A stretch of 64,000 bases of DNA from Pseudomonadota bacterium (GTDB lineage Bacteria > Myxococcota_A > UBA9160 > JADFDR01): NCBI GenBank assembly GCA_003353845.1, contig PIVT01000014.1, forward strand, positions 3,538 to 67,537. The letters are read 5' to 3'. A model generated the notes under the pieces. It had not been told where the DNA came from. It saw only the letters and a program-made list of their open reading frames with translations, and ran no database searches. Position 1 is the first letter of the stretch. Every line of letters begins with the position of its first letter. Below, in pieces: positions 9,864 to 52,873 of this stretch. A program made the position numbers and the translations under genes.

Positions 9864-9873
9864 GCTCGCTCCC

Positions 9874-28639: not shown

Positions 28640-31600
28640 CTAGGGCAATCCAACCGGCGGGCTCGAATCCCCGCCACAACTCCAGCGCACCGTGGGCGAG
28701 TTATAAGCCCCGTAGCCCCAGAGCGGCAGCAGGATTTCGGTGACGTCATCGTTATTGCAATTGCCGTCGCCAGTAACGTCACAGATGGCCCAGTTGTTAC
28801 TCGGCTGGGTGTAGGCTCCGTAACCCCAGAGGGCCAGCAGAATCTCTGTTACGTCATCGTTGTTGGCAGCACCGTCACCGTTGATGTCCCCACACTGACA
28901 TTCATCACCGATGCCGTCGCCGTTGGTATCCGTATTGGTGACGTTTGCACTGTCGGGACACAGATCGGGGTCGGGCCCGGCATCGCAGAAGCCATCGGCA
29001 TCAGCATCACCACCGAAGGCCACACAGGGACCCTGTGCGCAATCGGGCGTGCCGTCGGCGGGTGCAAGGTCGATGGTATCGTCCTCACCCGGACACAGGT
29101 CAATATGGCCACAGACGGTGTCGAGATCCGCATCTCCTCCATAACTTACGCCGTCACCTGGATAGATGGATTCAAAACCAAAGTCGGCACTGCTGGTATT
29201 TGTCCCCCAGATCACTCCGCCGCCTCGAGAGTACACACTGTACCATGGCGTTGTTCCCGCACGAGTATTGGGCACGACCACCTCTAAGAGGTATGTCTGT
29301 TCAGGTACGACAGCCACCTCCGTCGGGAAGTTAAATCTCACCAGCCCCATCGTAAAGACTCCATCGAAAGGCGTCACAGGAACGCTTGTCGCGATGACCG
29401 GATCCGTAAAGAGCGAACCATCATGCAGCTTTATATAGATCGGGTCGTTTGGCTCAGTGGGTACGACATCTTGAAGCCACCAATTGATGCCGCGCAAGAT
29501 CGGTTGCGAGGGTTGAAACCGTTGTCCCAGGCTTGCCCAACCGGTTATGGAATAGTTCGCGGGAACGGTATTGTTGGCCTTCTGGTCAACGGTATCCCCT
29601 CCAGTTAGACAGTAGAGTTCCAGACAATCGGGAAGGCCATTGCCTCCATCTGCGACGTCCAGGTGGTCATCCATACCGGGACAGGCATCGACGGCGTCAC
29701 AGACGTCATCACCATCGGCATCCTCGCCCACGGCACAGAGCTGCAGACAATCGATAATACCATTGGCATCGAGATCTGGGAGATCATCTTCACCCGGACA
29801 TTGATCCAGGTCGTCGCAGATGGTGTCTTGATCGGTGTCCCCACCTCGGGTCAATCCTTCCCGTGCGGAGATGGTTTCGAAACCAAGGTCGGAGCCGTTG
29901 GCTGTTATGACCCCCCATTGGTGATAGAACCCGGTACCTGCAAGGTAGGGGTTTGTCGTATCCCAGTAGCTCGGGCTCGCACGATGGTTGGGTGCGACCA
30001 CCTCAAAGACATACATGTTTCCAATGGCAACATCGATGTCTGTCGGGAAGTCGAATCGCACCATCTTGCCGGGAGTAAAGTCACCATCGAAGGGCGTCAC
30101 GTCGACACTCGTCGCAACCACCGGACCTGCCAGGCTACCTTCATGCAAAATGATCTGCATGGGATCGTTTGGCAAAGCGGGATCGTCATCATAAAGCGAG
30201 ATTTCGATGGCCCGCAACGTCGGCTGCTGGGGTACAAATTCCTGGCCGTACGGTGCCAGGGACAACACCGTCTGGGCATAGCCCGACCAAATCCAGTTGG
30301 TTCTGGCAGCCCCCTGGTTCAGCGTCTCGTCTCCAACCAGGCAAGCCAGTTCGAGACAATCAGGCACGCCGTTGGCTTCCGTATCGATGTTGTCATCGAA
30401 CTCAGGAGCGGGAGATGCGCCCGGACAGACATCGGCCGCGCCGCAGACCTCATCGCCATCGTTGTCCTCGCCTACGGCACAGGTTTGCAGGCAATCCTGC
30501 AAGCCATTGTTGTCCGCATCGGCCAAGTCGTCGAGGCCGGGGCACTCGTCCGAGTCATCACAGATTGTATCGGCATCGGCATCACCGGATTCGTCCATGC
30601 CGGTACACACGTCGCTGTCATTGCAGTTGATGTCGCCGTCATCGTTGCCGCTGTCGTCGTCACCGTTACAGACATCGACGTCGTTGCAGTAACCGTCGGC
30701 GTCATCATTGCCGCTGTCATCATCGCCCTGACAGAGATCGACGTCGTCGCAGTAGCCGTCGCCATCGCTATTGCCCGCGGCGTCGTCACCATAACAAGCA
30801 TCGAGATCATCACAGAAGCCGTCGGCATCCGCGTCGCCTACGAGATCGTTCCCCTGGCACTGGTCGTCGGCATCACACACGCCATCACCGTCGGTGTCAT
30901 CGGGGTTATCGAGCGGACAAGGATCGATGTTGTCACACAACAGGTCTCCGTCGGTGTCGCCCGTGGCATCATCACCGTTACAGATGTCGATATCATCACA
31001 CACATCGTCAGCATCGGCGTCACCCGTAGCGTCGTCACCTAAGCAGTCATCAATGTCGTCACACACGCCGTCGCTATCCGTATCACCGGTGGCGTCGTTA
31101 CCGTCACATGCGTCGTAGCGATCGCAGACGCCATCGAGATCGATGTCTGTCCACGGCGTGGCGTTGTCGGGATCGCAAACGTCGCCAATGTCATCGCAGT
31201 CGATGTCGGCTTGATCGTTGTTGTAGTCGTAGCCACAATTGTCTTCCACATTGGGCCAACCGTCGTCATCACGATCGCGCTTTTGGCAGATATCACCTTG
31301 TCCATCGCCGTTGCTATCGAGTTGATCTGGGTTAACGATCAGATCACAGTTATCGCAAGCGTCACCGTGCGCGTCCCCATCGGAATCCAGTTGATCAGGG
31401 TTGAAGGTGAAGGGGCAGTTGTCGAGGTCGTCGCGCCAGCCATCGGTGTCGCTGTTCGGTTCCTCGCACGCATCCCCGATGCCATCGCCGCTGATGTCTT
31501 CCTGGCCCGGATTGTTGATGGCATGGCAATTATCTACTTCACATACGACCAGATCATTATCCACATCATCAAGAGCTGACGGCGGGACAAACTCACGGCT

Positions 31601-34375
31601 GATTTCAAATCCCTTCAAATACAGGTAGGAATTGGAATCGGTTCTGGGCTGTCCGAGACCGGGAGGATTGGGAACTTCTCTTTCCGCCATGGTGAAGCTG
31701 GACGGCGTCGTGCCGTGCTGCAAGTCTCCGCCAAACATGAAGGGGTTTAAACGCATCCCCATCTCACTGGTGCCGGGCCATTGAAAGAAGAAGTCCTTGT
31801 AATAGGTCCTGTCTTCGACAAACCCACCCAGGTTACAGGCGCTACCTTTACAATGAATCCAACCCCCGGTGTGATAATCAGGGAGATTGGTAGACCAGGT
31901 CGTTGTGGTTCCATTCAAGGTACCCAGCGCAGGACCCGAAGGGCCGTCTGCGCCGGTGTAGTCGAAGTGGCTGTACACATAAGCCAAACCGGGAGATCCG
32001 GCCACGAAGTACATGGATATGCGGTAGTCCGACATCACCACCGAAGTGCCATTGGTAGAGATGCCCGTGGAGGTTCCGTCATCCTGGAAGGTCAAGGTCA
32101 CCGTAGAGGGATCACCCGCCGGATCGGGAGCCCAATCCGTGCCGTTATCATTGTCCGTGTCTACAGCAGAACCACCCGTCCCGGCTCTGTAGCCCCAGGA
32201 GCCATCGGAGTCGCCACCAATGGGTCCAGGATTACGGTCGCCTGCACCGTTGGCGGGCGTGTTACGGACATTCAAGAGACTTCCCGTCAATGCACTTCCA
32301 GAAACCCCCGAATGCGTCCAAACGGGATTCAGATCGGTATTGGAGATGTCATAGGTGACCTTCCAAGTACCCACCTGGCCTTCGGGGCCGCTGCAGCGAT
32401 CACACGCGTCACCACCGGTAATCCCGTCGCCGAGTTCCATGCCATCGCCATCGCGGTCTCCCTGGTCGACATTGGGCACATCGAGACAATTGTCGCAGGC
32501 ATCGCCCACGCCATCGCCATCGGTATCTTCCTGGCCCGTATTATAGGTGTTGGGGCAATTATCAACGTTGTTGGGCAGGCCGTCGCCATCAGGATCGACG
32601 TCCAAGAGTTTGCCATTGACGAAGAGACCGTCATCAGCCGCAACTCGTGGGCCTCCAGAGGGATACCTGCCGTGACCGAGATCTTGGTAGGAGAAACCAA
32701 CAGTACGCGCCAACCCCATGCGCCAAGCCGCTTGGTTCATGACCAAAATACCGCCCTCAAGCAATCCATAGGCTCTCACGGTAATTGGCATGCTGTACTG
32801 CAAGGTGACGGACGCTGGCCCGACGCCATCCAAAATACCCGAGACCGTTTGATCCACGGGGAAGTCACCGCCGTCTTGACTGCCCAGGCTTGGGACCGTG
32901 AGGTCTCCTGTCAAGAGACTGGCTGCACCGTAGTTCACCAGCAAGGTCGGAGTCACTTCACCAACGATCACATATCCGTTGTCTTGACTTGTACCGGATG
33001 CACCCAAGCGCTGGGTCGTCAGTTCCATCTCCCAATACTCACCCTCGGCTGCATCCACCATCACATCTACTTCATAGATATAGGTGGGGTAGATTTTCCC
33101 CGTACCTGTTTTGCCAACGGATTCAGTTGCCGTCAGCGCAGTAAAGCGGGCCGAGAAATCACCCAGGGGGCCGGGTGTAAAGGCAGGCACATCGGCACCC
33201 GATCGCCACTGATTTTGCCCTGGAGGATGGAAGCTATCCTGACCGAGTAAATTGGTTTCATACCAATCCGTTCGATACCGAACAACCCCAGACCAGGCAC
33301 CCGTGGTTCGGTTGCGTGTATCCACACCAACGATTTCTGCACCACTGGAAGCGGCCGGACCAGCACAAGCATCGCCGACGAGGTCACCATCCGTATCTAA
33401 TTGATCATCGTTGTAGTCGTTAGGACAATTGTCGACATCGGCAGCAATGCCATCGGCATCCGTATCGACCAGGAATCCATTAACGAAGATGCCGTCCAAA
33501 TTGATATCGCGACTGCCCTGGGCGCCATTTTGCTTATACCAACCATTGCTCAGATACCCGGAATAGCGACCGATGTAAGTGATACTGTTGTTCATCCCCA
33601 TGCGGAAGGCAGCTTCCGAACGGTATAAGGTATTGGGAACCATTCCGTAAGCCATCACGCCAGCAAGCATGGTGTAGGAAATCGTCACCGAGGCCGGGCC
33701 CGTACCACTGAGGTAAGTCGGACCTGCACTCACATTGTTCTCAAAAAACGGAGTGTCTGCTGCGGATTGGTCTAACATCTCAACACCCAGGGTGAGATCA
33801 CCGCTGTCCAGCACCGTAGGCACATGGTTGATGGCCACCGTAGCTGTCGCGGCGCCAATATTCACGATGTGCCGGCTACTACTATTCCCGTAGGACACAC
33901 TCCCGGCACCGGCTCGATAGGCGCTCAAGTCCAGCTCCCAGTATTCGCCTTCATCGGCGCCAATGCTCACATGGATGTCGAACATGAATTTTGGATGAAG
34001 CGAGCCTTTATTATTCCAGGCAGACTTGGCGGAAGCCCTACCCGTAAATCGCGTATCGAAGTCAAGTGTAGTGTTCGATCCCGTAATGGCGGAGTCATGC
34101 TGAGACTGACCATTGGGTTGGTAGGCCGTATCTTTCACGGTATTGGTATTGCTATAGGAGGTTCCCAGAGGAAAAGAACCGGGTGCGTTACTTGAGCTAC
34201 TCCAACCCGCCTGGGTCTTGTTGATGAGCTGGATGCCCAGCACCTCGGCGGCCTGGGCCGCTGGCGCCAACCATAAACCGCAGAGCAAGATTGCAATGGA
34301 GCTCGAAATCTTGCTTTTTTGACTCTTCAGGAAAGTATTCTCTCTACGCAGCTGCTTAACACCCATTTCATCCAT
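28640..34375 (-). CDS. 1911-aa secreted hyper-acidic Ca-binding repeat protein (thrombospondin type 3 repeats, paralogous beta-rich modules, C-terminal double dockerin-like repeat)
   Basis: Signal peptide ...ILLCGLWLAPAAQA. Multiple DxDxDGxxDxxDNCPxxxNxxQxD units. The C-terminus GDINGDGAANNDDVTEILLALWGYG / DVTGDGNCNNDDVTEILLPLWGYG forms a dockerin type I-like pair. Confidence 0.85.
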   Translation of the reverse strand: MDEMGVKQLRRENTFLKSQKSKISSSIAILLCGLWLAPAAQAAEVLGIQLINKTQAGWSSSSNAPGSFPLGTSYSNTNTVKDTAYQPNGQSQHDSAITGSNTTLDFDTRFTGRASAKSAWNNKGSLHPKFMFDIHVSIGADEGEYWELDLSAYRAGAGSVSYGNSSSRHIVNIGAATATVAINHVPTVLDSGDLTLGVEMLDQSAADTPFFENNVSAGPTYLSGTGPASVTISYTMLAGVMAYGMVPNTLYRSEAAFRMGMNNSITYIGRYSGYLSNGWYKQNGAQGSRDINLDGIFVNGFLVDTDADGIAADVDNCPNDYNDDQLDTDGDLVGDACAGPAASSGAEIVGVDTRNRTTGAWSGVVRYRTDWYETNLLGQDSFHPPGQNQWRSGADVPAFTPGPLGDFSARFTALTATESVGKTGTGKIYPTYIYEVDVMVDAAEGEYWEMELTTQRLGASGTSQDNGYVIVGEVTPTLLVNYGAASLLTGDLTVPSLGSQDGGDFPVDQTVSGILDGVGPASVTLQYSMPITVRAYGLLEGGILVMNQAAWRMGLARTVGFSYQDLGHGRYPSGGPRVAADDGLFVNGKLLDVDPDGDGLPNNVDNCPNTYNTGQEDTDGDGVGDACDNCLDVPNVDQGDRDGDGMELGDGITGGDACDRCSGPEGQVGTWKVTYDISNTDLNPVWTHSGVSGSALTGSLLNVRNTPANGAGDRNPGPIGGDSDGSWGYRAGTGGSAVDTDNDNGTDWAPDPAGDPSTVTLTFQDDGTSTGISTNGTSVVMSDYRISMYFVAGSPGLAYVYSHFDYTGADGPSGPALGTLNGTTTTWSTNLPDYHTGGWIHCKGSACNLGGFVEDRTYYKDFFFQWPGTSEMGMRLNPFMFGGDLQHGTTPSSFTMAEREVPNPPGLGQPRTDSNSYLYLKGFEISREFVPPSALDDVDNDLVVCEVDNCHAINNPGQEDISGDGIGDACEEPNSDTDGWRDDLDNCPFTFNPDQLDSDGDAHGDACDNCDLIVNPDQLDSNGDGQGDICQKRDRDDDGWPNVEDNCGYDYNNDQADIDCDDIGDVCDPDNATPWTDIDLDGVCDRYDACDGNDATGDTDSDGVCDDIDDCLGDDATGDADADDVCDDIDICNGDDATGDTDGDLLCDNIDPCPLDNPDDTDGDGVCDADDQCQGNDLVGDADADGFCDDLDACYGDDAAGNSDGDGYCDDVDLCQGDDDSGNDDADGYCNDVDVCNGDDDSGNDDGDINCNDSDVCTGMDESGDADADTICDDSDECPGLDDLADADNNGLQDCLQTCAVGEDNDGDEVCGAADVCPGASPAPEFDDNIDTEANGVPDCLELACLVGDETLNQGAARTNWIWSGYAQTVLSLAPYGQEFVPQQPTLRAIEISLYDDDPALPNDPMQIILHEGSLAGPVVATSVDVTPFDGDFTPGKMVRFDFPTDIDVAIGNMYVFEVVAPNHRASPSYWDTTNPYLAGTGFYHQWGVITANGSDLGFETISAREGLTRGGDTDQDTICDDLDQCPGEDDLPDLDANGIIDCLQLCAVGEDADGDDVCDAVDACPGMDDHLDVADGGNGLPDCLELYCLTGGDTVDQKANNTVPANYSITGWASLGQRFQPSQPILRGINWWLQDVVPTEPNDPIYIKLHDGSLFTDPVIATSVPVTPFDGVFTMGLVRFNFPTEVAVVPEQTYLLEVVVPNTRAGTTPWYSVYSRGGGVIWGTNTSSADFGFESIYPGDGVSYGGDADLDTVCGHIDLCPGEDDTIDLAPADGTPDCAQGPCVAFGGDADADGFCDAGPDPDLCPDSANVTNTDTNGDGIGDECQCGDINGDGAANNDDVTEILLALWGYGAYTQPSNNWAICDVTGDGNCNNDDVTEILLPLWGYGAYNSPTVRWSCGGDSSPPVGLP
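29160..30360 (-). repeat. two ~243-aa paralogous coding modules inside the giant gene
   Basis: LELACLVGDETLNQ...LGFETI and LELYCLTGGDTVDQ...FGFESI align along their length. Examples are IILHEGSLAGPVVATSVDVTPFDG versus IKLHDGSLFTDPVIATSVPVTPFDG. Confidence 0.8.
30540..31150 (-). repeat. about 9-10 tandem 21-aa (63-nt) acidic di-cysteine coding repeats
   Basis: The unit is C-x-G-D/N-D-x-x-G-D-x-D-x-D-G-x-C-D-D-x-D-x. Examples are CLGDDATGDADADDVCDDIDI, CNGDDATGDTDGDLLCDNIDP, CYGDDAAGNSDGDGYCDDVDL and CQGDDDSGNDDADGYCNDVDV. Confidence 0.85.
32425..34240 (-). repeat. two ~300-aa paralogous N-terminal modules inside the giant gene
   Basis: EGEYWELDLSAYRAGA...GPASVTISYTM...FRMGMN...DGIFVNGFLVD aligns with EGEYWEMELTTQRLGA...GPASVTLQYSM...WRMGLA...DGLFVNGKLLD. 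Each module ends in TSP3 repeats, and the spacing is 900 nt. Confidence 0.8.
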
Positions 34376-34497: not shown

Positions 34498-34520
34498 ATT
34501 GCATACCTTGGGTATGCAAT
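34498..34520. promoter_or_regulatory. perfect 10-bp inverted repeat overlapping the -12 element and predicted start site
   Basis: ATTGCATACC-TTG-GGTATGCAAT read directly. The right arm contains the TTGCA of the sigma-54 -12 box. Confidence 0.4.
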
Positions 34521-34530
34521 TGACATGCCA
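34515..34530 (-). promoter_or_regulatory. sigma-54 (-24/-12) promoter for the giant repeat-protein gene
   Basis: The minus strand reads TGGCATGTCAATTGCA, against consensus TGGCACG-N4-TTGCA. The GG and GC dinucleotides are at the exact spacing with one mismatch. It lies about 140 nt upstream of ATG 34375. Confidence 0.65.
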
Positions 34531-36866: not shown

Positions 36867-36906
36867 TAAAAAATTGCAGCGCTCCCTGTCTTCAGGGAGC
36901 GCTGCG
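36867..36906 (-). terminator. rho-independent terminator of the cytochrome operon
   Basis: On the minus strand, GCAGCGCTCCCTG-AAGAC-AGGGAGCGCTGC (12-bp stem) is followed by AATTTTTT. It lies 33 nt after the stop at 36939. Confidence 0.85.
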
Positions 36907-36938: not shown

Positions 36939-38720
36939 TTATGCAATTCCCTCCTTCGCGTCAGCTGCGGAGTTCTTTTCGTGTTCGGCTACGAGCTTGT
37001 CGTATTCCAACCCGTGTTCCTCACGCAGGCGCTCGGTGCTTATCATTCCGGTCAGCATGCTCTTATCAAAAGGAAAGACTTCTGGACGGAACGTGACGCC
37101 CCAGAGGTGCCAGATCAGCACGACGAGCACGGCCAAGGTCGCTTCATAACCATGGGCCACTCGTGCTGCAACGAGAACAACACCGGGGAGGTAGGTGGTT
37201 GTGAACTCTGGGAAGACCAAGATAATCCCTGTCCCACCGATCAACACACCACCGAGGAAGAGTCCCCAGTACTCGAACTTCTCACCGTAATCGAACTTTC
37301 CGAAACGGGGGGCCGGGCCCAAACCCATCTGATGTCGCAGGCTCTCAAAGATATCCTTGAAATCCTTTACAGTGGGCAAGATATCCGGTCGATGATGCGA
37401 GCGCAGCGTTACAAAGACGCCGTGCACCACATGCGCCACCATGATCGCGACGAATGCAAAACCACACACGCGATGGATGAAACGTGCCGAGAAAATGCCA
37501 CCCCAGAAGTCGATCACGGCTCCGGCCACACCAGAACTCGGATAGCCTTGGGGGATCCCGGTGAGCACCAACAGAATGAACAAGAACGCCACTGCCGAGT
37601 GCTCCGCACGCTCCAGTTTCGTAAACCGCATCACGCTGGCAGGTAGCCCTTCAAAGATGGCCTCCTCGTCCGGCGCTTCGGCTCTGCGTGTTCGGTAATG
37701 ATGGGTGAGCTGGATGATGATGTGCACAAGCAAACCAACCAGCATCATGGGAATCAAGAACTGATAGGCCATGCGAACGATCCACACGAGGACCCCACGC
37801 TCCGGTCCGAGCTCACCATGCCCCAACCAGGCACCGGCGAATTGTGTTGATGCGCCATCGTGGCACTCAGCACAAACCGCGACTACCTCTTCTTCTGTCA
37901 GAGGCCCCACATTGTGCGGGCCATGACAGGTGGCACAGGTCATGATCTCCGAGGGGTCGGTGCCTTCCAAACCTGACAATAAGTGCTGAAAAGTAAGCCC
38001 GTGAAAATCATCCATATAGGAGGTGACCACAGCGCCTTCTCGCTCATACTTGAGAACGAGCAGGCTATCATCCGAATGGCAATCGATGCACAGGGTCGTC
38101 ACACGGGCGATCATGGGCAAGTCAGCCCCCTCGCCCCCGCCATGCGCCGGGTGACAGGTATTGCACTCTGGCAAGTCAGCGTTGGGGTCTGATTCCAAAG
38201 TAGCTTCCGAGTGACCACCGGCCTCGAAGTCCTCAAACTCCTCCTCGTGGCAGCTATCACAGCGGTTGAGAATGGTCAGAGGGGCTGTTTCAAAGCTGCT
38301 ATCAGCGTGCGCGGAGTGACAATCCACACACATTGGAGCATCGTCGCCCTCGGAACTATGTTCTTGCAGGGTCTCTTCATGACAGGACTGGCAGAGTTCG
38401 GATCGCATCTGCGCATACTCACGTGCGCTCATGTCGTAATCGAAATCTGGATGGTCATCCACGTACTCTTCACCATGGCACGACTCACAAGCCAGGATCT
38501 CTCCGTGCGCCGACTTACGAACCGCAGCGCCATCAAACTCAAAGTAAATAACCTTGCCACTATCGAAAACGAACTCCACCTCGTCCGGATCCATATCTTC
38601 GTGACAATCCAAGCACTCCGCGTTCAGTTCATCAATTTCTTCGGGGAGCAAGTCCTGCCCCCACGCAGGAACTGCGAGGGGCAGGAACAACAGTACAAGG
38701 GCAACAACCGAGATACGCAT
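36939..38720 (-). CDS. nine-haem c-type cytochrome fused to a membrane cytochrome b (HydC/FdnI-like) domain; CbcL-like quinol oxidoreductase
   Basis: Signal peptide followed by nine CxxCH motifs (CLDCH, CESCH, CQSCH, CVDCH, CDSCH, CNTCH, CIDCH, CATCH, CAECH). The C-terminal ~290 aa has about 5 TM helices with conserved His. Start set at ATG 38720, preceded by AAGGAG. Confidence 0.8.
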   Translation of the reverse strand: MRISVVALVLLFLPLAVPAWGQDLLPEEIDELNAECLDCHEDMDPDEVEFVFDSGKVIYFEFDGAAVRKSAHGEILACESCHGEEYVDDHPDFDYDMSAREYAQMRSELCQSCHEETLQEHSSEGDDAPMCVDCHSAHADSSFETAPLTILNRCDSCHEEEFEDFEAGGHSEATLESDPNADLPECNTCHPAHGGGEGADLPMIARVTTLCIDCHSDDSLLVLKYEREGAVVTSYMDDFHGLTFQHLLSGLEGTDPSEIMTCATCHGPHNVGPLTEEEVVAVCAECHDGASTQFAGAWLGHGELGPERGVLVWIVRMAYQFLIPMMLVGLLVHIIIQLTHHYRTRRAEAPDEEAIFEGLPASVMRFTKLERAEHSAVAFLFILLVLTGIPQGYPSSGVAGAVIDFWGGIFSARFIHRVCGFAFVAIMVAHVVHGVFVTLRSHHRPDILPTVKDFKDIFESLRHQMGLGPAPRFGKFDYGEKFEYWGLFLGGVLIGGTGIILVFPEFTTTYLPGVVLVAARVAHGYEATLAVLVVLIWHLWGVTFRPEVFPFDKSMLTGMISTERLREEHGLEYDKLVAEHEKNSAADAKEGIA

Positions 38721-38730
38721 GACGATCTCC

Positions 38731-39834
38731 TTAGCGAACATTGGCCAGACGGAAGACTCTTATGATCTTCTCGCTGACTCCATAAGCAACAGCCGAAAAT
38801 ATGATCAAGGGCAGACAAACGATGTAGGCCAATCCCTTGAACGGTGCGGCAACCAACCTTCCGAAGTCACGCAATGAACCTGGATCAAAGGTCATCGAGT
38901 CAACGACTGGCGCCATGCGCTCTTCTTCGGCCACGACAGCAGGGGTCTCGATTCCAGTCACCACTGCGGGACGAAGTGCCTTCGCAAACAGCATCCCGGT
39001 TCCGTAGATGGCGGCCGCAATACCGATTACCGGCAAGAACATGATGAACGCCAAACCGATGAACGGAGAAACCGCCAATCTGCCGAGTTCGCGAAGTGAA
39101 CCTGGATCAAAGGTCGTCGCTTTAACCGCTGGCTCCGCTTTTTTCTCTTCGCATACAACAGCGGGGGGCTCGATTCCGGTTACCACGGCAGGTCGGAAAG
39201 GCTTCGCAACCAACATTCCGATTCCGTAGATCGCTGCCGCAATACCAATCACCGGCAGGAACATGATGTAAGCCAAGCCCATGAAGGGAGAGACCATCAA
39301 TCTCACGAGTTGGCGAAACGAGCCTGGTTTTGCTTCGGCCGTCTCTACAACCTGCGCAGTCTCTTCCGTTTTTCTTACCAATTGATGGATCGTCGCAGTG
39401 CCTTCGGCAGTTTCGGACACCTCAGCGGGATCGTCGGCAACCACTGCGTGAGCCCAGGATGATTGATCACCGCGCAACGCAGCCAATGCCATTTCTTCCA
39501 GATCGTCCGGGGATACCGGCTTCTCCAGATATCCGTAAGCACCCAGCTTGCGCGCCTTCGCTTCAACCTCAGGGCTACCATAACCAGTAATGAGTACGAA
39601 GGGGGTATCGGGCTCGTTATCGTGCAACCACTCCAGCAATTCCAAGCCATCCGCCCCAGGCATCCGGAGATCGGAAATGACCAGGTCAACGGGGTGAGAC
39701 TGCAATCCGCAAATCGCGCTATCTCCGTCCGCTGCGGTCGTTACCATTCGCTCATCCGTCGATAAGAGGCGCCTCCATCCTTCTCGGACGCCCTTTACGT
39801 CGTCCACGAACAAGATTTCTTGTCTATGTGCCAT
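38731..39834 (-). CDS. response-regulator receiver fused to three tandem hydrophobic repeats (unknown output domain)
   Basis: The REC domain has FVDD, VISDLRMPG, LITGYG and LEKP. It is followed by 3 copies of a ~74-aa unit with core SPFxGLAxIxFLPVIGIAAAIYG. An upstream start at ATG 39861 is possible. Confidence 0.8.
   Translation of the reverse strand: MAHRQEILFVDDVKGVREGWRRLLSTDERMVTTAADGDSAICGLQSHPVDLVISDLRMPGADGLELLEWLHDNEPDTPFVLITGYGSPEVEAKARKLGAYGYLEKPVSPDDLEEMALAALRGDQSSWAHAVVADDPAEVSETAEGTATIHQLVRKTEETAQVVETAEAKPGSFRQLVRLMVSPFMGLAYIMFLPVIGIAAAIYGIGMLVAKPFRPAVVTGIEPPAVVCEEKKAEPAVKATTFDPGSLRELGRLAVSPFIGLAFIMFLPVIGIAAAIYGTGMLFAKALRPAVVTGIETPAVVAEEERMAPVVDSMTFDPGSLRDFGRLVAAPFKGLAYIVCLPLIIFSAVAYGVSEKIIRVFRLANVR
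38734..39330 (-). repeat. 3 x 222-nt tandem coding repeat (last copy shortened)
   Basis: GAACCTGGATCAAAGGTC occurs at 38876 and 39098, exactly 222 nt apart. A diverged third copy sits near 39320. The protein-level repeats are DPGSLRELGRL..., PGSFRQLVRL... and DPGSLRDFGRL... Confidence 0.85.
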
Positions 39835-39838
39835 CGTG

Positions 39839-40303
39839 TTAGTTTCTCGTAGCGCTAGCATGTTGCACCTCCCGGGACCGCAGTCCCCACGTCAGCTCTT
39901 GACCTGGCGCAAAACACCAAGTCCGCTGTTCCAAAATCCGACGGACAGAGCGCACGACACGCTCCACGCCCGATGTGTCTAAATAGGTCTCTAAAAATTC
40001 CACGGAGCATGCGCTCAGATAGGCGGCCAAAATCACGGAAATGCCTTCTTCCACGATTGCCACCTTTCGCAAGCCGGGATACTCAAGGCTCAACCGGCTC
40101 AACACGATCAACAGTGATCCAAGTCGAAGCTCACTCACTCGGAAGATGAGTACGGCAATGGATGACAGGCGGTCGCTGTGGATCAACGCTTCCAAGTCGT
40201 GAAAGCACACGATGGGAAGTCCATCTCTGATCAAGGACTCCGCCAGTGCATCGTCTGCGGGGCCGCTTTCCAGAATGGCTATGAGGTTGGGTTGGTCATT
40301 CAT
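39839..40303 (-). CDS. pseudo-receiver-like protein (REC fold lacking the acidic pocket)
   Basis: 154 aa with a beta-alpha pattern like CheY. It reads LIAILESG where DD is expected and IAVLIFRV where the phospho-Asp strand is expected. First gene after the sigma-54 promoter. Confidence 0.45.
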   Translation of the reverse strand: MNDQPNLIAILESGPADDALAESLIRDGLPIVCFHDLEALIHSDRLSSIAVLIFRVSELRLGSLLIVLSRLSLEYPGLRKVAIVEEGISVILAAYLSACSVEFLETYLDTSGVERVVRSVRRILEQRTWCFAPGQELTWGLRSREVQHASATRN

Positions 40304-40365: not shown

Positions 40366-40381
40366 TGCAAGCTGCGTACCA
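40366..40381 (-). promoter_or_regulatory. sigma-54 (-24/-12) promoter of the pseudo-REC / REC-repeat / cytochrome operon
   Basis: The minus strand reads TGGTACGCAGCTTGCA, against TGGCACG-N4-TTGCA. There is one mismatch and the GG/GC spacing is exact. It lies about 60 nt upstream of ATG 40303. Confidence 0.7.
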
Positions 40382-40681: not shown

Positions 40682-42151
40682 TCAGGTGTCGGTGGAAGAA
40701 GTGTCTTCAGCGCCGTCTTCACCATTGTCAGAAATTTTTGGCACGCTCACTCCGTGCTTGCGCATGAGGGCGTGAAAATTCGTGCGCTGCATGTCGACCA
40801 CGCGCGCCGCTTCAGTGACATTCCAGCGCGCTTGCTGAAGCGACTTGATAACGAAGAGCTTCTCGAGCCGTTCCACCGCCTCCGCGCGCAACTCCTTCTT
40901 CCGAGCCGCCAGGGCGCGGGCATCCTCGGGAATGTCTTCATTCTCAATGGCGGAGTGCTCACCTAAAATCGTGGGCAAGGAATCGATATCGATGAACTCC
41001 GTGTCGGTGAGAAGTACCGCACGCTCGATCACGTTCTCAAGTTCGCGCACGTTTCCAGGCCACTCGTGCACCTCAAGAGCAGAGAGCGCCCGCGGTCGAA
41101 TACCTCCAATGGGTTTATCGAATTCTTTTGAGCATTTCTCGATGAAGTGGTGCGCAAGCAAGGGGAGTTCCTCGATCCGCTCGCGCAGCGGCGGCAAGGC
41201 GACAGTGAAGACAGCCAGGCGATAGTAGAGATCCTCACGAAAGGTACCGTTCTCCACCAATTCCTTGAGGTCCTTATTGGTCGCAACGACCAAGCGCACA
41301 TCTACACTGACATATTTGTCAGCACCCACGGGTCGGATTTCACGCTCTTGAAGAAGCCTCAGCAGGCTGCTCTGAATTTGCGGTGAAATCGTAGCGATCT
41401 CGTCCAGGAACAGTGTGCCTCCGCGTGCGGACTCGACCAGGCCTTTGCGATCGCGCACGGCTCCCGTGAAGGCTCCACGCACATGTCCAAAAAGTTCAGA
41501 CTCCAAAAGTGATTCGTTCAGGGCAGAGCAATCGGCCACAACATAGGGATTGTCTTTCCTGGGGCTGTTGTAGTGAACCGACTTGGCGATGCAGTCCTTA
41601 CCCGTCCCTGTTTCACCAGAAATAAGAATCGTACTATTGGTAGGAGCCGCCTTGGCCACCAGCTGCATGACGACTTGCATCTTCGGTGACGAGCAAACCA
41701 ATCCACCAATGCGATGCCGAGTCTCCAATTCCGAACGCAGTCGCTCGGTTAGGTTGAGGAGGTGTCTGCGCTCGAGAGCGCGGGCCACGGTGATCAGGAG
41801 TTGATCCGGTGCCACAGGTTTCTGCAGGTAATCAAATGCACCTTGCCGAATAGCATCGATGGCTGTCTCGATGGTCGCATATCCCGTTACGATCACAACC
41901 TCGGTTTCAGATGCGGTCGCACGCGCCTCGCGCAATACCTCCATGCCGTTAAGCCCGGGCATTTTTATATCGAGCAAGAGAAGATCAAAGTTTCCATTTC
42001 GTAAGAGTTCAATCCCCTCCTTCGGGTCACAAGTCGTCGTGACGTCGTAGCCTTCATCGCTGAGCACCCGTCGAATGCTCTCGCAAACCACGGCCTCATC
42101 GTCGATGGATAGGACCTTTGGGGAAAGGTCCCACTCTTCATTTACTGGCAT
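40682..42151 (-). CDS. sigma-54-dependent response regulator (NtrC family bEBP)
   Basis: REC ([11 protein letters not shown]), AAA+ Walker A GETGTGKD, the GAFTGA loop (RGAFTGAV), and a C-terminal Fis-type HTH ([25 protein letters not shown]). Confidence 0.9.
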
Positions 42152-42162: not shown

Positions 42163-43800
42163 TCAGCTTTCACTCTCTGCATCTGCAATGGCTACAGCGA
42201 CGGGCAGGAGAACCGTAAACTCGGTCCAACTCTGTCCGTCGCTATCAATGATGATGGTTCCGCCGTGACGAGTTGCGATCCCATAGGAAATCGACAAACC
42301 AAGGCCTGAGCCTTGCCCGGCTGGCTTTGTCGTAAAGAACGGTTCGAAAACCCGCGCAACGTCTCTCTTTGAAATTCCGTGGCCGGTATCTCGAACGCGA
42401 AAGCGAACCAGAGAAATGGATCCACTATCGGGCGGCAAACCGTGCTCTTCGAAGTCCGCGCGCGGAACTTTATCTACCTTCATAGAAAGTTTCCCTCCCG
42501 GCTTCATCGCTTGAATCGCATTCAGCATCAGGTTGAGAAACACTGGAGTCATCTGACTTTTGTCGACCTTGATTCCGGGGAGGTCCTCAGCGACAAGGCA
42601 TTCCTCCTCGATGTCCTGCTCACGGAGCTTCGGGCGTACCAACTTCAGCGTGTTCTCCAAAATCTCCCCAGGGCTGCAGACCTCCATGGGGTGATCCGTT
42701 TTCTGATCCCGTGAGAAATCCAGAAGATTTCGGATGATTACCGCACAACGGTTCGCCTCGTCCAAAATCATTCCCACGTCCTCGTATTCCTGCGACTCGG
42801 GATCGAAGTTTTTCCGCACAAGATGGCCGAAGGTAATAATAGCCATGAGCGGGCTATTCAATTCGTGGGCTACACCGGCCGCGACCAAGCCCACTGCTGA
42901 AAGTTTCTCCGCTTGCATGGCCTGATATTGTGCCGTGCGCACCTCCCTGGACTTCTCGTGCAGTTCATCCTTCAGGACACTGATCCACTCCTGCTCCTGG
43001 GCCCGCGACACGTGCATGTTCTCAACCATCTTATTGAATGAACTGGTGAGGACACCGATCTCCGACGCAGCAGGGGAAGAGATCGTCTGAGAGAAGTCAC
43101 CACTGGCCACCTGTCGCGTGGCCTCGATGAGATTCCATATCGGCCGGTTGACGGTGACCTGAACCAAAACGAACAAGCCAAGCGATATCAAAATCAAGAC
43201 GCTCATGGAAACACCGGCGGCTTTCCAACTGGCCGCAACGATGCGCTCCTCTGTAGGTTCCATGGACATGCTCACATCCAGAACCCCAAGGATGCTCTTG
43301 GTTTGCATATCCGCGTGGCATTCCTCCTCTCCGCAGCGCTTCTCGTTCTGGATCACACTGATCGTGGAAAGCATCTTTTGGCCAGCCTCATTCTCATAGA
43401 CTCTAGAACGCTCGGCGATGGAGAGATGCCGAATGGGTTTATTCGCGTCATGGCACAGGAAACAGGCCTCAGCGTTCTTGTCCACCATCATTCCGACTTC
43501 AATCGGAGTGGATGAATGAGAGATCTCGCCCTCCTTATTAAAGAGGCGGATCCGATCCACGCCGGGGTGGCTCCCCACAGAGTAGATAATCTCCTGCACG
43601 CCTTTCGGATTGTCCTCGAGCATCTCGTGGGAAATGCTCAGGAGAAGCATTTCCGCGACGTTGTCGCTGCTGTGGATAACTTCTTCAAGTACCTGGCCGC
43701 GCTGATTGGAAATGAGTGTCGCCGAAAGAATGATCATGCCGACAGCGACGAGGATCGCCGCCGATAAAGAAACCCGAGTTCCCAGCGTCATTTGCTTCAT
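42163..43800 (-). CDS. sensor histidine kinase with haem-motif periplasmic domain and HAMP
   Basis: Two TMs flank a ~170-aa domain containing CFLCH (CxxCH) and CGEEECH (Cx4CH). HAMP follows, then the H-box GVAHELNSPL and an ATPase with DTGHGI and GSGLGLS. Confidence 0.85.
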   Translation of the reverse strand: MKQMTLGTRVSLSAAILVAVGMIILSATLISNQRGQVLEEVIHSSDNVAEMLLLSISHEMLEDNPKGVQEIIYSVGSHPGVDRIRLFNKEGEISHSSTPIEVGMMVDKNAEACFLCHDANKPIRHLSIAERSRVYENEAGQKMLSTISVIQNEKRCGEEECHADMQTKSILGVLDVSMSMEPTEERIVAASWKAAGVSMSVLILISLGLFVLVQVTVNRPIWNLIEATRQVASGDFSQTISSPAASEIGVLTSSFNKMVENMHVSRAQEQEWISVLKDELHEKSREVRTAQYQAMQAEKLSAVGLVAAGVAHELNSPLMAIITFGHLVRKNFDPESQEYEDVGMILDEANRCAVIIRNLLDFSRDQKTDHPMEVCSPGEILENTLKLVRPKLREQDIEEECLVAEDLPGIKVDKSQMTPVFLNLMLNAIQAMKPGGKLSMKVDKVPRADFEEHGLPPDSGSISLVRFRVRDTGHGISKRDVARVFEPFFTTKPAGQGSGLGLSISYGIATRHGGTIIIDSDGQSWTEFTVLLPVAVAIADAESES

Positions 43801-44301: not shown

Positions 44302-46290
44302 CTACTGACTGGGTGTCTCATCCACTTTCCGCACCTTGAAGAAGGACATCAACTTCTTTAGTCCCTGTGCCTGGGACGACAGTTGCTCGGCAGTGCTCGA
44401 TAGCTGTTCCCCTGCGGTGGCGTTCTTTTGGGTGACGCGATCCATTTTGGACATGGCCTCGGTGATCTGATTCACGTTGGACGATTGCTCGTTGGAGGAA
44501 GCGGCCACCTCCTTCACAAAGTTGGCCGTATCCTGGATCGCGGGAATAAGAGCCGTGATCAAAGATCCCGAATGCTCGGCAGCCTTGACGCTCACACCTG
44601 CCACTTCGCCGATCTCCTGAGCCGCAGCACGGCTGCGCTCCGCCAGGCTGCGCACCTCCGAGGCGACGACAGCAAAGCCTTTGCCGTGTTCCCCTGCGCG
44701 AGCCGCCTCGATGGCCGCATTGAGCGCGAGGAGATTCGTCTGGTAGGTGATCTCCTCCACGATGGAGATCTGTTCGGCGATGCTTTCCATGGCGTAGCCG
44801 GTCTCCTCCACGGCTTGTCCGCTCTCTTCAGCACTGGCACAACTCTTGGTAGCCATCTGCTCAAGCCGGTGGCTATTCTCGGCGTTCTGCAGGATGGAGG
44901 TGCCCATGTCTTGGAGCACCAAGGCAGCTTCACTTACTGCGGCGGCTTGTTCGCTGGTTCCGCTAGCGAGGCCCTGCGAGGATGAGGCCACTTGCTCAGC
45001 AGCCAGGGAGAGTTCCATGGACTGCCCGTGTACATTTCGAATGACACCGTTGAGGCGCGTGGCCATATTATCCAAGACAATCCCCAGCTGACCTAACTCG
45101 TCCTCGGAGCCGAATCCAGAGCGGCGCGAGAAATCACCCGAAGCGATACGTTCCATCTCTCCTCCAAGCTCGCGAATGGACCCCGCATAACCTCTGGAGA
45201 AACAGAAGATGGCCAGCATCCCGATGCAGAATATCGAAGCGACGAGGATCCCGAAGATCGGTCGCACTTCGGCGACGCGCCCTCCGTAGGCAGTATTCCG
45301 CGTGTAGGCGACCAGGATGTAGGGTTGGCCCTCGATGGCGCGCCAGGAAAAGAAATAAAGGGTGTCGTAGGCGGTGCTATCACCCTGGGTGAGGGTCTCT
45401 CGATCACGGCGAATGATGTCGAGTTCTTCGGAGTGCAGGGCCTCCTCGCCGTAGACATCGAACATTGTTTTCTCTGTGAGGTCTACCGTCTGGACGCGAA
45501 TGGCAAGGAGATGCGCTAAGCGTTCCTGGCTCTCGATGGATCCCTCGACATCTAGACCGAATTTCAAATCCTCTTCGATCAGATCGAACATCTCCGCCTG
45601 TCTTTGAATCGTATAACGTTCGACGAAGCGCTCGGATTCTCGCTGTGCCATGGCCACACCGAACACGACCGCCGAAAGCACCAAGCCGCAAACAATCCCG
45701 AGGAGTTTAACTTGGATATTCAGTCGCAAGATTCCAGTGTCGCCTCTTTCCCATTCGGGCAACCAACGCTTGATCTCACGGCGTACCGGATCGAAGTGGC
45801 GCTTCAGGGAATACATTCCCGTGATCTGCGTAACAACGGAGGCCAGCGCAATGGCGACAAAGAGAATACCCGCGCTCTTCTTCGTGAAGAGATCCGAATT
45901 CGAAAGCAGCGCCACATCCAACACCACAGCGTTGATGAGCCACAAACAAAAATAATTGAGATTCATCTTCCAGGGTGTGTTGATGCTGGTGACATACGCC
46001 TGTGTCACCTCCTGCGGTGTCAGGTCCGCGGGGCTCGGCGCATCCAAGAAGACTGCGATGGGTCGAAGCCAGTAACTGAAGATGAAATGGTTGGCGATGA
46101 CAGACAAAATGCCGAGGCCGATGGCAATGACGGAGGCAATCTGAATCTGTGGCGGCGTCATGCGCAATAGCAAGGCGATGAATCCGATGAGAATGGTGGC
46201 GCCGATAGTGGCGTTGAACCCACCCGTCTGGATCACGCGATTTGTGAACTGGCGCCCCGAGGGCAGCGTTGGCGTTTCCATTTGCTCCAT
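44302..46290 (-). CDS. methyl-accepting chemotaxis protein with a six-TM input region
   Basis: HAMP plus the signalling hairpin [39 protein letters not shown]. Five predicted TM helices precede a ~150-aa loop, followed by a sixth TM. Confidence 0.88.
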
Positions 46291-46629: not shown

Positions 46630-47880
46630 TCAGATTTCGCGAATCACCGCTCGCGGATTCTCGAAGCGTGTATCGTCTCCCGACTCGTAGGGCTCGCTAA
46701 AGGTCAGTGGGATGGCCACCCTGCTCAAGACGGTGAACAGCAGTATCCCCACGGCCGCAATACCGATCCCGATCATAACCTCGGCAAGGGAGGGCACATA
46801 CTCATAGACCTCACCGAGGGTCCCGGGCGTGAACCCCGGAAGAACGAGGCCGATACCCTTCTCGATGAACACGCCAACGAAGACAAGTACGCAGCCGAGA
46901 TTCATGAGGAAGGTGTTCTGGCGAAGATGTGGAGTCAAGAGAAGGAAAAAGGCGATAATGTTGAAGAGCGCCCCGGTCCAAGCCCAGCTCACGAGGCTCA
47001 CGTGACCCTCAATGCCTCGGAAATAATACTGCATGTGGACAGTATGGGCGGTAGCCGAGCGGAACTCTGTGATGACCTCGGCGAAGAAGAGCAGGAGATT
47101 GACGAAGAGAACGATGGAGATCATTTCTGCAATCTTCTGCAGTGCTTCCTCGCGAATATTGATATTGGCAGTTTTTCTCAGGATCTGAAAGGCGATCACC
47201 ATGAGCGCCGGCCCTGCGCAGAGAGCGCTCGCAATGAAGCGCGGAACCAGGATGGCGGAGTTCCAATACGGGCGCGACGGCAGCACGTTGAAGATGAAGG
47301 CCGTCGTCGTGTGAATGCTAATGGCAGCGGGGATCGAGAACAGCATCAAGCTCATGAAGATGAATTTATTGTAGGGCTTACCGACGAAGGCACAGTAGAG
47401 GAAGTAAGTGACGATCACGATGTTGAGGACCAGGTAACCGTTGAGGATCATCACGTTCATCCCGATCATCGAGGTAGGCAGGTTTGGCGTACCGACGACA
47501 GGAAGCAAGTGCCAAAAGCGCTCCGGGCGCCCGAGGTCCGCCATGACAAAGAGGATGCACATCACCACCGCACAAATCGCGATGATCTCGCCGAGCACGA
47601 CGATCTCCTTGATGGGCTTCCAGTGATAGACATAGCCGGGTACGGCGAGGGCCATGGCGGCGGCGGCGACACCTACAAGGAAGGCATAGGTTCCGATGAA
47701 CATTCCCCAAGGCACGGGATCGCGCATATTCGAAACGATGTGCCCGTGCGCCAGTTGCTGTTGGTATCCGCTGACCCCGACGAGCACGAAGGCGAGCAGG
47801 ATCGCGAGCCACATATAATAAGTGCTGCTCCCGAACACTATCTGCTTCACACTGAATCTGATGAATTTCAAGAAGTCCAT
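46630..47880 (-). CDS. NrfD/PsrC-family polytopic quinone-interacting membrane subunit
   Basis: 416 aa with about 10 TM helices. Its position after a Tat-FeS NrfC-like subunit fits the family. Assignment rests on context and composition. Confidence 0.72.
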   Translation of the reverse strand: MDFLKFIRFSVKQIVFGSSTYYMWLAILLAFVLVGVSGYQQQLAHGHIVSNMRDPVPWGMFIGTYAFLVGVAAAAMALAVPGYVYHWKPIKEIVVLGEIIAICAVVMCILFVMADLGRPERFWHLLPVVGTPNLPTSMIGMNVMILNGYLVLNIVIVTYFLYCAFVGKPYNKFIFMSLMLFSIPAAISIHTTTAFIFNVLPSRPYWNSAILVPRFIASALCAGPALMVIAFQILRKTANINIREEALQKIAEMISIVLFVNLLLFFAEVITEFRSATAHTVHMQYYFRGIEGHVSLVSWAWTGALFNIIAFFLLLTPHLRQNTFLMNLGCVLVFVGVFIEKGIGLVLPGFTPGTLGEVYEYVPSLAEVMIGIGIAAVGILLFTVLSRVAIPLTFSEPYESGDDTRFENPRAVIREI

Positions 47881-47924
47881 GTCGCGCTCCCAAGAGGAAA
47901 AAAGTTCAACCTTTACCGCTCACA

Positions 47925-48857
47925 TCAATCGCCATAGAAGTAAAAGAACTTCGGCCTTGTATCGAGCTCTGCCTTCAAGACGAAAGTTCGTTTATTCTCC
48001 ATCAAGTACCGGATCTCACTATCGGGATCGAGAAGATTCCCGAACTTCCGGGCGCCGACGGGACAAGCTTCAACACAGGCCGTATAACGTCCTTGCCGCG
48101 TGCGTTGAATGCACCAGGTACACTTTTCGACGACGCCGTGTTCCCTGGGGCGATTACCCAAGATGTGCATATTGGGATTGATCTCCTCGGCTGGGATCTG
48201 CGGTTCGGTCCAATTGAAGTGGCGTGCTCCGTAGGGACAGGCCGCCATGCAGTAGCGGCAGCCAATGCACCAGTCGTAATCCATGACGATGATGCCATCG
48301 GGCTCCTGCCAGGTCGCTTGCGTCGGGCAAGCCTTCACGCATTCCGGGTTCTCGCATTGCTGGCAGGCCACCGGCAAGTAGAACTTACCCTCGGCAGGTA
48401 CCTTCTCATGGTCGTAGAAGGGGTTCCCATCTTCGAAGTCAATCCGACGCAGGACATCGGTTCTCTCGAATTCGAGGACGCGAATCCAATGGATCTCCGG
48501 GCTGCGCGATTGGTTGTTCTCTTCGACGCAGGCATACACACAGCGTCGGCAACCAATGCAGCGTGAGACATCCAAGCCGTAGCCAAAGAGCACATCATCC
48601 ATAGGGCCCGTAACGCCCAGCTTCACTTCCTTGCCAGAGCGTTTGGAGTATTTCTTCTCCAGGCGCTCGATGAGGCGGTCGAGTTCTTCAGGGGAAAGCT
48701 CACGGAAGTGCTTCTGGAACAACGCTTCAAAATCAATCTTCGCATTGGCGGCTGCAGGGACCCCGGTCAATGCGGCGGCTCCAGCTCCCGCCGCCTTGAG
48801 AAACTTGCGACGTGAGTGCGAGGCACACGCCGTCGTGTTCTTATCAATCTTCTTCAT
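47925..48857 (-). CDS. Tat-exported 4Fe-4S ferredoxin subunit (NrfC/PsrB/HybA-like)
   Basis: Twin-arginine signal SRRKFLKAAGAGAAALTG. Cluster motifs CIGCRRCVYAC, CQQCENPECVKACP, CIGCRYCMAACP and CTWC...CVEACP. Confidence 0.87.
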   Translation of the reverse strand: MKKIDKNTTACASHSRRKFLKAAGAGAAALTGVPAAANAKIDFEALFQKHFRELSPEELDRLIERLEKKYSKRSGKEVKLGVTGPMDDVLFGYGLDVSRCIGCRRCVYACVEENNQSRSPEIHWIRVLEFERTDVLRRIDFEDGNPFYDHEKVPAEGKFYLPVACQQCENPECVKACPTQATWQEPDGIIVMDYDWCIGCRYCMAACPYGARHFNWTEPQIPAEEINPNMHILGNRPREHGVVEKCTWCIQRTRQGRYTACVEACPVGARKFGNLLDPDSEIRYLMENKRTFVLKAELDTRPKFFYFYGD

Positions 48858-52624: not shown

Positions 52625-52873
52625 CTCGATCTCCTTCTCCAGCAACTCAGATAATACAAACTTCTACTCCGTCGTCCCGCAAGGAACATTATGTCCATTC
52701 AAGGTGGCCAAGACTCAATCTAACCAACAAACTGTGCCGAAAGCCATTGATCTCATCCGACGGTAGTTGATCGCTACAAAGATCGTCGCGACGGCGCTGC
52801 TTATGGCGTACCCTGCGCAGAAGTGGCGCGGTCAGTGGATGATGACCAAAAACTCGTCCTAAAGGAATTTTTC

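Follow-up and report, generated by a model that had tools for sequence, protein, structure and literature searches.

The domain at the end of a response regulator nearly always binds DNA or has enzymatic activity. The present study concerns a response regulator that ends in a conserved, unannotated intramembrane module and is encoded directly upstream of a multihaem cytochrome. The gene lies in a 64,000-nucleotide (nt) stretch, hereafter called the window, of an assembly named Pseudomonadota bacterium (GTDB lineage Bacteria; Myxococcota_A; UBA9160; JADFDR01; GenBank assembly GCA_003353845.1, contig PIVT01000014.1, positions 3,538 to 67,537, forward strand). Like CheY with FliM, DivK, CpdR and the RssB adaptor, the window protein carries a canonical receiver without DNA-binding or enzymatic output and is presumed to act by phosphorylation-dependent protein contact. 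Unlike in the CheY-type regulators, its receiver appears to be permanently anchored at the membrane: a long disordered linker joins it to novel hydrophobic units, which number 1-6 across the family. The identity and architecture of this response regulator are near certain, while the target of the tethered receiver is weakly supported. In the literature searched, no description was found of a membrane-anchored or transmembrane-output response regulator, nor of one associated with CbcL.

Among the closest described systems is the cbcBA operon of Geobacter sulfurreducens. From a sigma54 promoter, this operon expresses a b/c-type cytochrome of the inner membrane along with small hypothetical proteins and the "response receiver" GSU0596, and the sigma54-dependent activator BccR is encoded divergently beside it (bioRxiv 10.1101/2021.04.15.440034). 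Judged by gene content and description, this design parallels that of the window module. However, GSU0596 comprises only ~130 amino acid residues (aa) against 376 in the window response regulator and is therefore too short to carry membrane units, and CbcBA combines a 7-haem cytochrome c with a separate cytochrome b, whereas the window encodes a 9-haem c/b fusion. In CbcL, nine CX2CH motifs occupy the half towards the N-terminus, and six transmembrane (TM) helices of the HydC/FdnI type occupy the C-terminal half (PMC6295460). The window cytochrome shares this architecture of CbcL, MtoC and MtrH, with nine CX2CH motifs followed by a multi-TM HydC/FdnI-like domain. The cbcL gene of G. sulfurreducens (GSU0274) is flanked by a radical-SAM gene and a resistance-nodulation-division (RND) pump, with no receiver, pseudo-receiver or dedicated kinase beside it, and published surveys of the CbcL/MtoC/MtrH family make no mention of receiver neighbours.

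CbcL-family proteins are inner-membrane electron exits (or entries) of extracellular electron transfer. The genes cbcL and imcH are reported to be expressed constitutively, but their use depends on the acceptor potential (PMC5585712). A phospho-regulated membrane protein made together with a CbcL-type cytochrome makes the choice of pathway by redox potential, and post-translational control of such cytochromes, testable. The locus described here does not constitute a new signalling principle. It is a robust, unannotated and phylogenetically broad association, a compact five-gene unit that recurs in Gemmatimonadota, in the lineage of the window and in many Beta- and Gammaproteobacteria, and it points to an undescribed way of controlling membrane electron flow.

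Response Regulator Gene and Operon Structure

The response regulator gene is the middle gene of a predicted three-gene sigma54-dependent operon that encodes a putative pseudo-receiver, the response regulator and the cytochrome. The elements of this operon are as follows.

38731..39861, minus strand: response regulator gene, the subject of this study; open reading frame of 376 aa, conserved N-terminal extension included
38727..38733, minus strand: overlap of the response regulator stop codon (TAA, 38733..38731) with the AAGGAG ribosome-binding site of the cytochrome gene (38732..38727), read directly from the sequence
36939..38720, minus strand: cytochrome of CbcL architecture; 593 aa, in which a signal peptide precedes nine CxxCH motifs (between aa 36 and 287) and a b-type domain
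39839..40303, minus strand: predicted pseudo-receiver gene, first in the operon; 154 aa, no Pfam or NCBIfam match
40367..40381, minus strand: sigma54 -24/-12 promoter-like element TGGTACGCAGCTTGC, intergenic, ~64 nt upstream of the ATG at 40303
36876..36905, minus strand: strong intrinsic terminator-like hairpin (13 bp, of which 10 are GC) with a T-run after it; closes the operon 34 nt past the cytochrome stop

The initial annotation placed the beginning of the response regulator gene at 39834, which is the position of an internal methionine. The start has been corrected to the ATG at 39861, which in the sequence is preceded at 5-9 nt by a GGAGG Shine-Dalgarno element. The nine additional N-terminal residues (MLxxR.T.T) are kept in homologues that have no internal methionine, and the 376-aa product is also the public gene call on the contig. 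With this start, the gene overlaps the stop codon of the pseudo-receiver gene (39839..39841) by 23 nt. At the other end, the claim that the TAA stop lies inside the AAGGAG site of the cytochrome gene proved exact, the cytochrome ATG (38720..38718) following 6 nt past that site. The tight coupling of the two genes was likewise borne out, with a gap of 10 nt in the window and of 10-32 nt at eight related loci.

The promoter-like element TGGTACGCAGCTTGC has one mismatch to TGGCAC-N5-TTGC and is a predicted promoter. The pattern TGGYAY-N5-YTGC was found 34-91 nt upstream of the homologous first gene in eight of ten related loci, and the other two have near-matches.

The product of the first gene is predicted to be a pseudo-receiver, that is, a protein with a receiver fold and without the phosphorylation residues. 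The AlphaFold2 (AF2) model has a b1a1...b5a5 topology with a predicted local distance difference test score (pLDDT) of 79 and a predicted template modelling score of 0.74, only one of the five models being confident. The top Foldseek matches in the PDB were TadZ/CpaE atypical receivers (4lda being the best), Spo0F and the receiver (REC) domain of NtrC1, with target TM-scores of 0.66-0.81. According to the alignment, the protein lacks the acidic pocket, the Thr and the Lys, and no Asp is conserved at the ends of b1 or b3. Comparison of the 154-aa family with REC by hhalign gave no sequence signal, so the assignment comes from the predicted structure alone. The protein resembles the TadZ/CpaE atypical receivers in having a predicted receiver fold without a phosphorylation pocket, but it is a stand-alone protein and not the N-terminal domain of a ParA/MinD ATPase, and its sequence similarity to them is undetectable. 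The 154-aa gene is kept at the first position in all window-type loci, while the proteobacterial loci have a true single-domain REC gene there.

Receiver, Tether and Repeat Units

The response regulator is composed of the following parts, in the numbering of the 376-aa protein.

39490..39816, minus strand: receiver (REC) domain, ~aa 16-124; D20/D21, phospho-acceptor D64, T92 and K114
39331..39489, minus strand: acidic tether between the receiver and unit 1; ~55 residues, rich in Ala/Val/Glu/Thr, predicted to be disordered
39109..39330, minus strand: unit 1, aa 178-251; short amphipathic lead-in, 32-residue uncharged segment LMVSPFMGLAYIMFLPVIGIAAAIYGIGMLVA, basic exit and acidic spacer
38887..39108, minus strand: unit 2, aa 252-325; recent duplicate of unit 1
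38734..38886, minus strand: unit 3, aa 326-376 (51 aa); conserved terminal unit beginning with AAPFKGLAYIVCLPLII and ending in the basic tail KIIRVFRLANVR

The receiver had been thought to be intact, and all the evidence obtained agrees with this. It matches Pfam Response_reg (PF00072) with E = 2.4e-26 and 92.5 bits against a cut-off of 30.2, and it possesses the motifs FVDD (aa 18), ISDLRMPG (aa 62), LITGYG (aa 90) and LEKP (aa 112). The AF2 model predicts a (beta-alpha)5 fold with pLDDT >90 over residues 1-125, and Foldseek aligned the receiver model with solved receivers at E ~1e-10 and target TM-scores of 0.8-0.9. Every aligned homologue that bears a REC domain retains the catalytic residues. 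This strict retention wherever a receiver exists indicates that phosphorylation matters. No DNA-binding or enzymatic output domain was found in the protein with Pfam and NCBIfam. The tether has a pLDDT <50 at residues 131-171 of a 367-aa AF2 model; both this linker and the inter-unit linkers combine pLDDT values <50 with a low-complexity composition.

The initial annotation described three copies of a ~74-aa unit with a 222-nt period still visible in the DNA. A repeat search (182 nt at 79% identity, 222-nt spacing) and direct comparison of the copies showed the period to be exact and the copy number to be correct. The unit length holds for units 1 and 2, at 74 aa each, but not for unit 3, which has only 51. 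Between units 1 and 2 the identity is 75% in DNA and 72% in protein, and unit 3 shares 56% DNA identity and 44-46% protein identity with the others. Such repetition lies far beyond chance. Tandem Repeats Finder reported no repeat at the locus because there are only 2.7 diverged copies. The closest full-length relatives, which are 69-81% identical, have two units and lack the extra copy (unit 2). The three-copy state of the window protein appears to be a recent local duplication. In the subfamily of the window, the units are separated by acidic Pro/Val/Glu spacers of ~40 residues.

The Unit as a Protein Family

A search with the C-terminal 200 aa retrieved 24 relatives, nearly all of which consist of a receiver and 1-3 units. 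A unit profile of 48 columns was then built from 44 units and scored against 1.84 billion representative proteins. With a threshold of E <= 1e-3 it matched 816 proteins, of which 271 reached E <= 1e-10 and the best ~1e-54, the proteins counted being clusters at 50% identity. The core of the unit has ~45 aa and comprises a basic lead-in, an uncharged segment (modal length 31 residues) and a basic exit. The pattern of the uncharged segment is AAPFxGLAYxxxLPxxG. Across the 44 aligned units, Pro16, Gly19 and Pro27 never vary, and Ala and Gly are conserved at i / i+4 spacing. The unit alignment contains no conserved polar, charged, His, Cys or Met residue. The absence of conserved His, Cys, Met and charged residues makes a cofactor site unlikely, and a cofactor-binding role for the unit was rejected for lack of conserved His, Cys or Met.

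The unit had initially been called unrecognised, and the hidden Markov model and structure searches gave the same picture. When the window C-terminus and 78 family representatives were compared with Pfam-A and NCBIfam, only the receiver was matched. A stand-alone unit protein had no match in PHROGs, the PDB profile search with the unit gave a best E of only 0.95, and the Foldseek PDB search with the full model aligned the receiver alone.

The number of units ranges from 1 to 6 in the family. The Gemmatimonadota versions have one unit, and in the proteobacterial subfamily the unit period is 42-49 aa. Many members without a receiver keep remnants of it (MSALRK..., ...WTP...), for example P0028, P0054, P0058, P0059, P0062 and P0068, which implies descent from receiver-bearing ancestors by receiver decay. 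The comparison of these sequences indicates that the receiver decayed repeatedly while the membrane units stayed. No fusion of a unit with a cytochrome was found among the 78 representatives scanned. The unit represents a new protein family with at least 816 clusters at 50% identity, a variable copy number, receiver-less derivatives and a phage-borne member.

In one member of 224 aa (P0026), three units follow the N-terminal ~65 residues of a hydrogenase nickel chaperone of the HypA type (Pfam HypA, E = 7e-15); this may be a genuine fusion or the product of a frameshift or a wrong gene call. A stand-alone two-unit protein of 125 aa is encoded at 4331..4708 of locus L102, on the viral-catalogued contig IMGVR_UViG_3300000203_000003 (141,978 bp), next to genes of phage type for NAD synthetase, phosphoesterase and S-AdoMet lyase; such proteins were also found at L101, L103 and L106. 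The exact pattern AAPFIGLAY occurs in only two viral contigs among 2.9 million. A holin-like role was considered for the phage copy.

Cytochrome, Kinase and Activator

The claim that the downstream gene encodes a nine-haem cytochrome was confirmed by the nine CxxCH motifs and by the matches of the b-type domain. This domain, similar to FdnI and HydC, has 5-6 hydrophobic segments between aa 309 and 545. The protein matches Paired_CXXCH_1, Cytochrome_C7 and Ni_hydr_CYTB (E = 3e-13) in Pfam, the formate dehydrogenase gamma subunit in NCBIfam (E = 2e-12) and FdnI in the PDB (1kqf_C, E = 8e-6). Judged by its architecture, the product is a putative CbcL-type quinol:periplasm oxidoreductase with 9-haem c and dihaem b parts. 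Its nearest named homologues, 39-44% identical, come from metagenome-assembled genomes (MAGs) of Gemmatimonadota and bear generic database names ("cytochrome b/b6 domain-containing", "cytochrome c3 family").

Two regulatory genes complete the five-gene module.

42163..43800, minus strand: sensor histidine kinase with TM segments at aa 5-33 and aa 192-221, a periplasmic domain bearing CFLCH (aa 113), and the domains HAMP, HisKA and HATPase
40682..42151, minus strand: sigma54-dependent response regulator with REC, an AAA+ sigma54-interaction domain and a Fis-type helix-turn-helix

The kinase matches HAMP, HisKA and HATPase_c in Pfam, and Mcp40H-20_sensor, a haem-c sensor family of Geobacter, at a sub-threshold level. 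Of 34 homologous kinases encoded at related loci of both subfamilies, 33 have a single CxxCH at ~aa 112. Together with the weak Mcp40H-20_sensor match, this suggests that the kinase is a redox sensor with covalently bound haem. The activator matches Sigma54_activat (E = 1.2e-66) and Response_reg (E = 3.3e-29). Such an activator is present in all related modules, and every module has an adjacent kinase gene.

Conservation of the Module

In window-type loci, the gene order is kinase, sigma54 activator, 131-155-aa protein, receiver with unit(s), and 9-haem c/b fusion. The cytochrome gene lies directly downstream of the response regulator gene in all nine window-type loci with enough sequence (L001, L003, L008, L089, L100, L107, L108, L109 and the window). 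When the search was started in reverse, from cytochrome homologues 61%, 43% (Gemmatimonadales) and 39% (Longimicrobiales) identical to that of the window, the same five genes were found at all three loci, which are counted among the nine.

The survey of species-representative genomes was made with a receiver-plus-units alignment of the proteobacterial subfamily and is biased towards that subfamily and towards receiver-bearing members; it returned at least 555 matching places of the Beta/Gammaproteobacterial subfamily. Among the carriers are Rhodoferax, Rhodocyclaceae, Sulfuritalea, Georgfuchsia, Steroidobacteraceae and Noviherbaspirillum sp. ST 5-3, whose genome is complete and has the cluster (locus L071) at ~5.270-5.277 Mb of NZ_CP176528.1; the module also occurs in metagenomes. 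In 40 of the 71 evaluable Beta/Gammaproteobacterial loci, the genes just downstream encode a cytochrome c with 7-13 haems (in most cases nine) and, separately, a cytochrome b, and 35 of these 40 also have a true small REC gene upstream. The kinase and activator genes are downstream and convergent in the proteobacterial loci, whereas in window-type loci they are upstream and on the same strand.

Several individual loci deserve mention. Loci L001 and L100, both from GCA_029261835.1, are paralogous modules in one MAG, one with two units and the other with one unit; their contigs end 91 codons into near-identical cytochrome genes, probably owing to an assembly break at a repeat. A stand-alone two-unit gene lies within the cytochrome clusters of L053, L055, L073 and L080, and L074 has near-identical receiver-plus-three-unit genes in tandem (4457..5461 and 5956..6846, plus strand) upstream of its cytochrome genes. 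Orphan loci adjoin ars genes in L024 and L027. In L005 and L023, from Burkholderiales MAGs, a three-unit orphan paralogue is divergent from an SCP2 gene and two U32-peptidase genes (136..2655, minus strand, next to 3311..4180, plus strand); this trio resembles ubiT/ubiU/ubiV of O2-independent ubiquinone synthesis. At L003, RND efflux genes for a membrane fusion protein and an AcrB-like pump follow the cytochrome gene (5422..9917, minus strand). The G. sulfurreducens cbcL gene likewise precedes a gene of an RND membrane fusion protein (GSU0276), and this may be residual synteny.

Membrane Topology of the Unit

With 31 residues, the uncharged segment exceeds the length of one TM helix but falls short of that of two. 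Monotopic membrane proteins with a hydrophobic hairpin include stomatin, caveolin and proteins with reticulon-type hairpins. The unit resembles them in its ~30-residue uncharged segment, central conserved proline and basic flanks, but it has no sequence or fold relation to stomatin, caveolin or reticulon, and its hairpin is deduced from charge and parity statistics only. The inter-unit loops are equally basic, with a mean of 4-4.5 K/R against ~1 D/E per ~18 residues, and loops 1 and 2 are alike; this lack of alternation conflicts with the positive-inside rule for alternating helices. Both odd and even unit counts occur among close relatives, always together with a basic C-tail and the conserved terminal unit. 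The length of the segments, the uniformly basic loops and the labile unit count favour a re-entrant hairpin with both ends in the cytoplasm.

The predicted structures and residue couplings do not support the hairpin. In the AF2 model, every unit is a single straight, unbroken helix (38-48 residues, pLDDT 70-85). Mean-field direct coupling analysis of 485 unique units (effective number 388) revealed no antiparallel hairpin ladder and gave helical i+3/i+4 couplings and artefacts of the near-invariant prolines. The odds between a re-entrant hairpin and an ordinary TM helix are about even.

Possible Mechanism of Regulation

A tentative reading, to which we give slightly less than an even chance, is that a membrane-bound receiver acts locally on a co-made cytochrome b partner under kinase-driven redox control. 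The kinase would read the periplasmic redox state via its covalently bound haem and would phosphorylate the sigma54 activator, switching the operon on. In addition to this transcriptional arm, there would be a membrane arm, in which the kinase also phosphorylates the tethered receiver, phosphotransfer being assumed. The units would pass no conformational signal and would keep the receiver at the inner membrane on its cytoplasmic face, perhaps as same-side (re-entrant) hydrophobic hairpins able to self-associate. The tethered receiver would then resemble a membrane-bound CheY, the phosphorylated state of which binds a partner at the membrane. The likeliest partner would be the co-translated cytochrome b domain, bound on its cytoplasmic face, perhaps with the pseudo-receiver, and the outcome would be a tuning of cytochrome activity, assembly or placement that is faster than transcription allows. 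The cytochrome b domain is made the leading candidate by the conserved place of the gene just upstream of the cytochrome and by stoichiometric coupling. The ~55 disordered residues and the similar inter-unit linkers make allosteric gating through the membrane module unlikely and speak for the tethered receiver as the active part.

Several observations weigh against this reading, in addition to the modelling and coupling results, which do not support its hairpin component. The putative partnership of receiver and cytochrome is read from gene order only. Stand-alone proteins without a receiver, 90-180 aa long and with an N-terminal Met, make up 101 of the 171 members examined, and 31 of the 71 evaluable proteobacterial loci have no cytochrome neighbour and lie in varied contexts. 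The receiver-less homologues, one of them on a phage contig, imply that the units have a role of their own, which is not necessarily linked to a cytochrome. Moreover, the canonical cbcL of G. sulfurreducens has no such neighbour. The initial annotation had regarded homologues without the receiver or the cytochrome neighbour as damaging to its proposal; they do exist at the level of the family, in the proportions just given, but not in the clade of the window.

Regulon-encoded membrane inhibitors that exert feedback on kinases are an established design, exemplified by MgrB acting on PhoQ. The tethered receiver could similarly be a feedback element or phosphate sink, which, being encoded in the operon and located beside the kinase, would compete with the sigma54 activator and limit or sharpen cytochrome expression; the pseudo-receiver (or, in proteobacteria, the small true REC) would modulate the kinase as well, and no contact with the cytochrome would be needed. 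The position of the gene inside a sigma54-controlled operon and the presence of one kinase but two or three receivers per module agree with this, and a flexible tether with a membrane anchor would suit co-localisation with a membrane kinase. However, a mere anchor needs neither the invariant Pro, Gly and Pro nor a motif conserved across phyla, receiver-less derivatives retain the units, sometimes inside the same cytochrome cluster, and the place just upstream of the cytochrome is fixed while the kinase genes move. We consider feedback unlikely, though it is the strongest rival of the main reading. The same receiver-less derivatives raise the question of whether the units themselves are the functional part, as a small intramembrane subunit or scaffold that self-associates through small-xxx-small helix packing and organises or stabilises respiratory complexes or shapes the membrane, with the receiver adjusting only the oligomeric state. 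The predominance of stand-alone members (101 of 171), many with receiver remnants, would fit such a role, as would the stand-alone two-unit genes in L053, L055, L073 and L080, the tandem REC-unit genes in L074 and the i / i+4 spacing of conserved Ala and Gly. It is nevertheless quite doubtful, given the lack of any unit-cytochrome fusion among the 78 representatives and the strict conservation of the catalytic residues where a receiver is present. The orphan and phage contexts also speak against a dedicated cytochrome subunit, and that candidate was rejected because orphan and phage copies exist.

The initial annotation had suggested that the protein could gate, assemble or localise the cytochrome. 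In a strong version of this, the three-unit module itself would be a receiver-driven gate, channel or re-entrant plug that directly opens or closes electron or quinol access in the cytochrome. Translational coupling, conserved adjacency and the embedding of the module in the membrane speak for this version. Gating would, however, have to be transmitted across ~55 disordered residues between the receiver and the units and ~40 more between units, which offer no rigid allosteric path; the unit number, free to vary from 1 to 6, is ill-suited to a defined gating structure, and polar, His, Cys and Met residues are not conserved in the unit. Such a gate seems very improbable. A bolder form of the tethered-receiver proposal is a dedicated post-translational redox switch, in which the haem-c kinase, via the membrane response regulator and the pseudo-receiver, would directly switch a CbcL-type quinol:periplasm electron gate between on and off in a matter of seconds. 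This is also improbable, but if true it would define a new class of response regulator output, in which an intramembrane hairpin module acts on a respiratory complex, and would offer an explanation, in molecular terms, of how bacteria that respire metals or electrodes choose among inner-membrane electron exits by acceptor potential.

Other Genes in the Window

A gene encoding a methyl-accepting chemotaxis protein with HAMP and MCP signalling domains (44302..46290, minus strand) lies directly upstream of the kinase gene, on the same strand. A second respiratory module is located at 46630..49512 (minus strand) and comprises a multihaem cytochrome c (48844..49512), a 4Fe-4S protein with a Tat signal (47925..48857) and an NrfD-like membrane subunit (46630..47880). 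A further multihaem cytochrome is encoded at 51794..52645 (minus strand). The region 28640..34375 (minus strand) encodes a 1911-aa protein with thrombospondin type-3 repeats. A good sigma54-like element, TGGCATGTCAATTGC, with one mismatch, is present at 34516..34530 (minus strand), ~140 nt upstream of the start of the 1911-aa protein.

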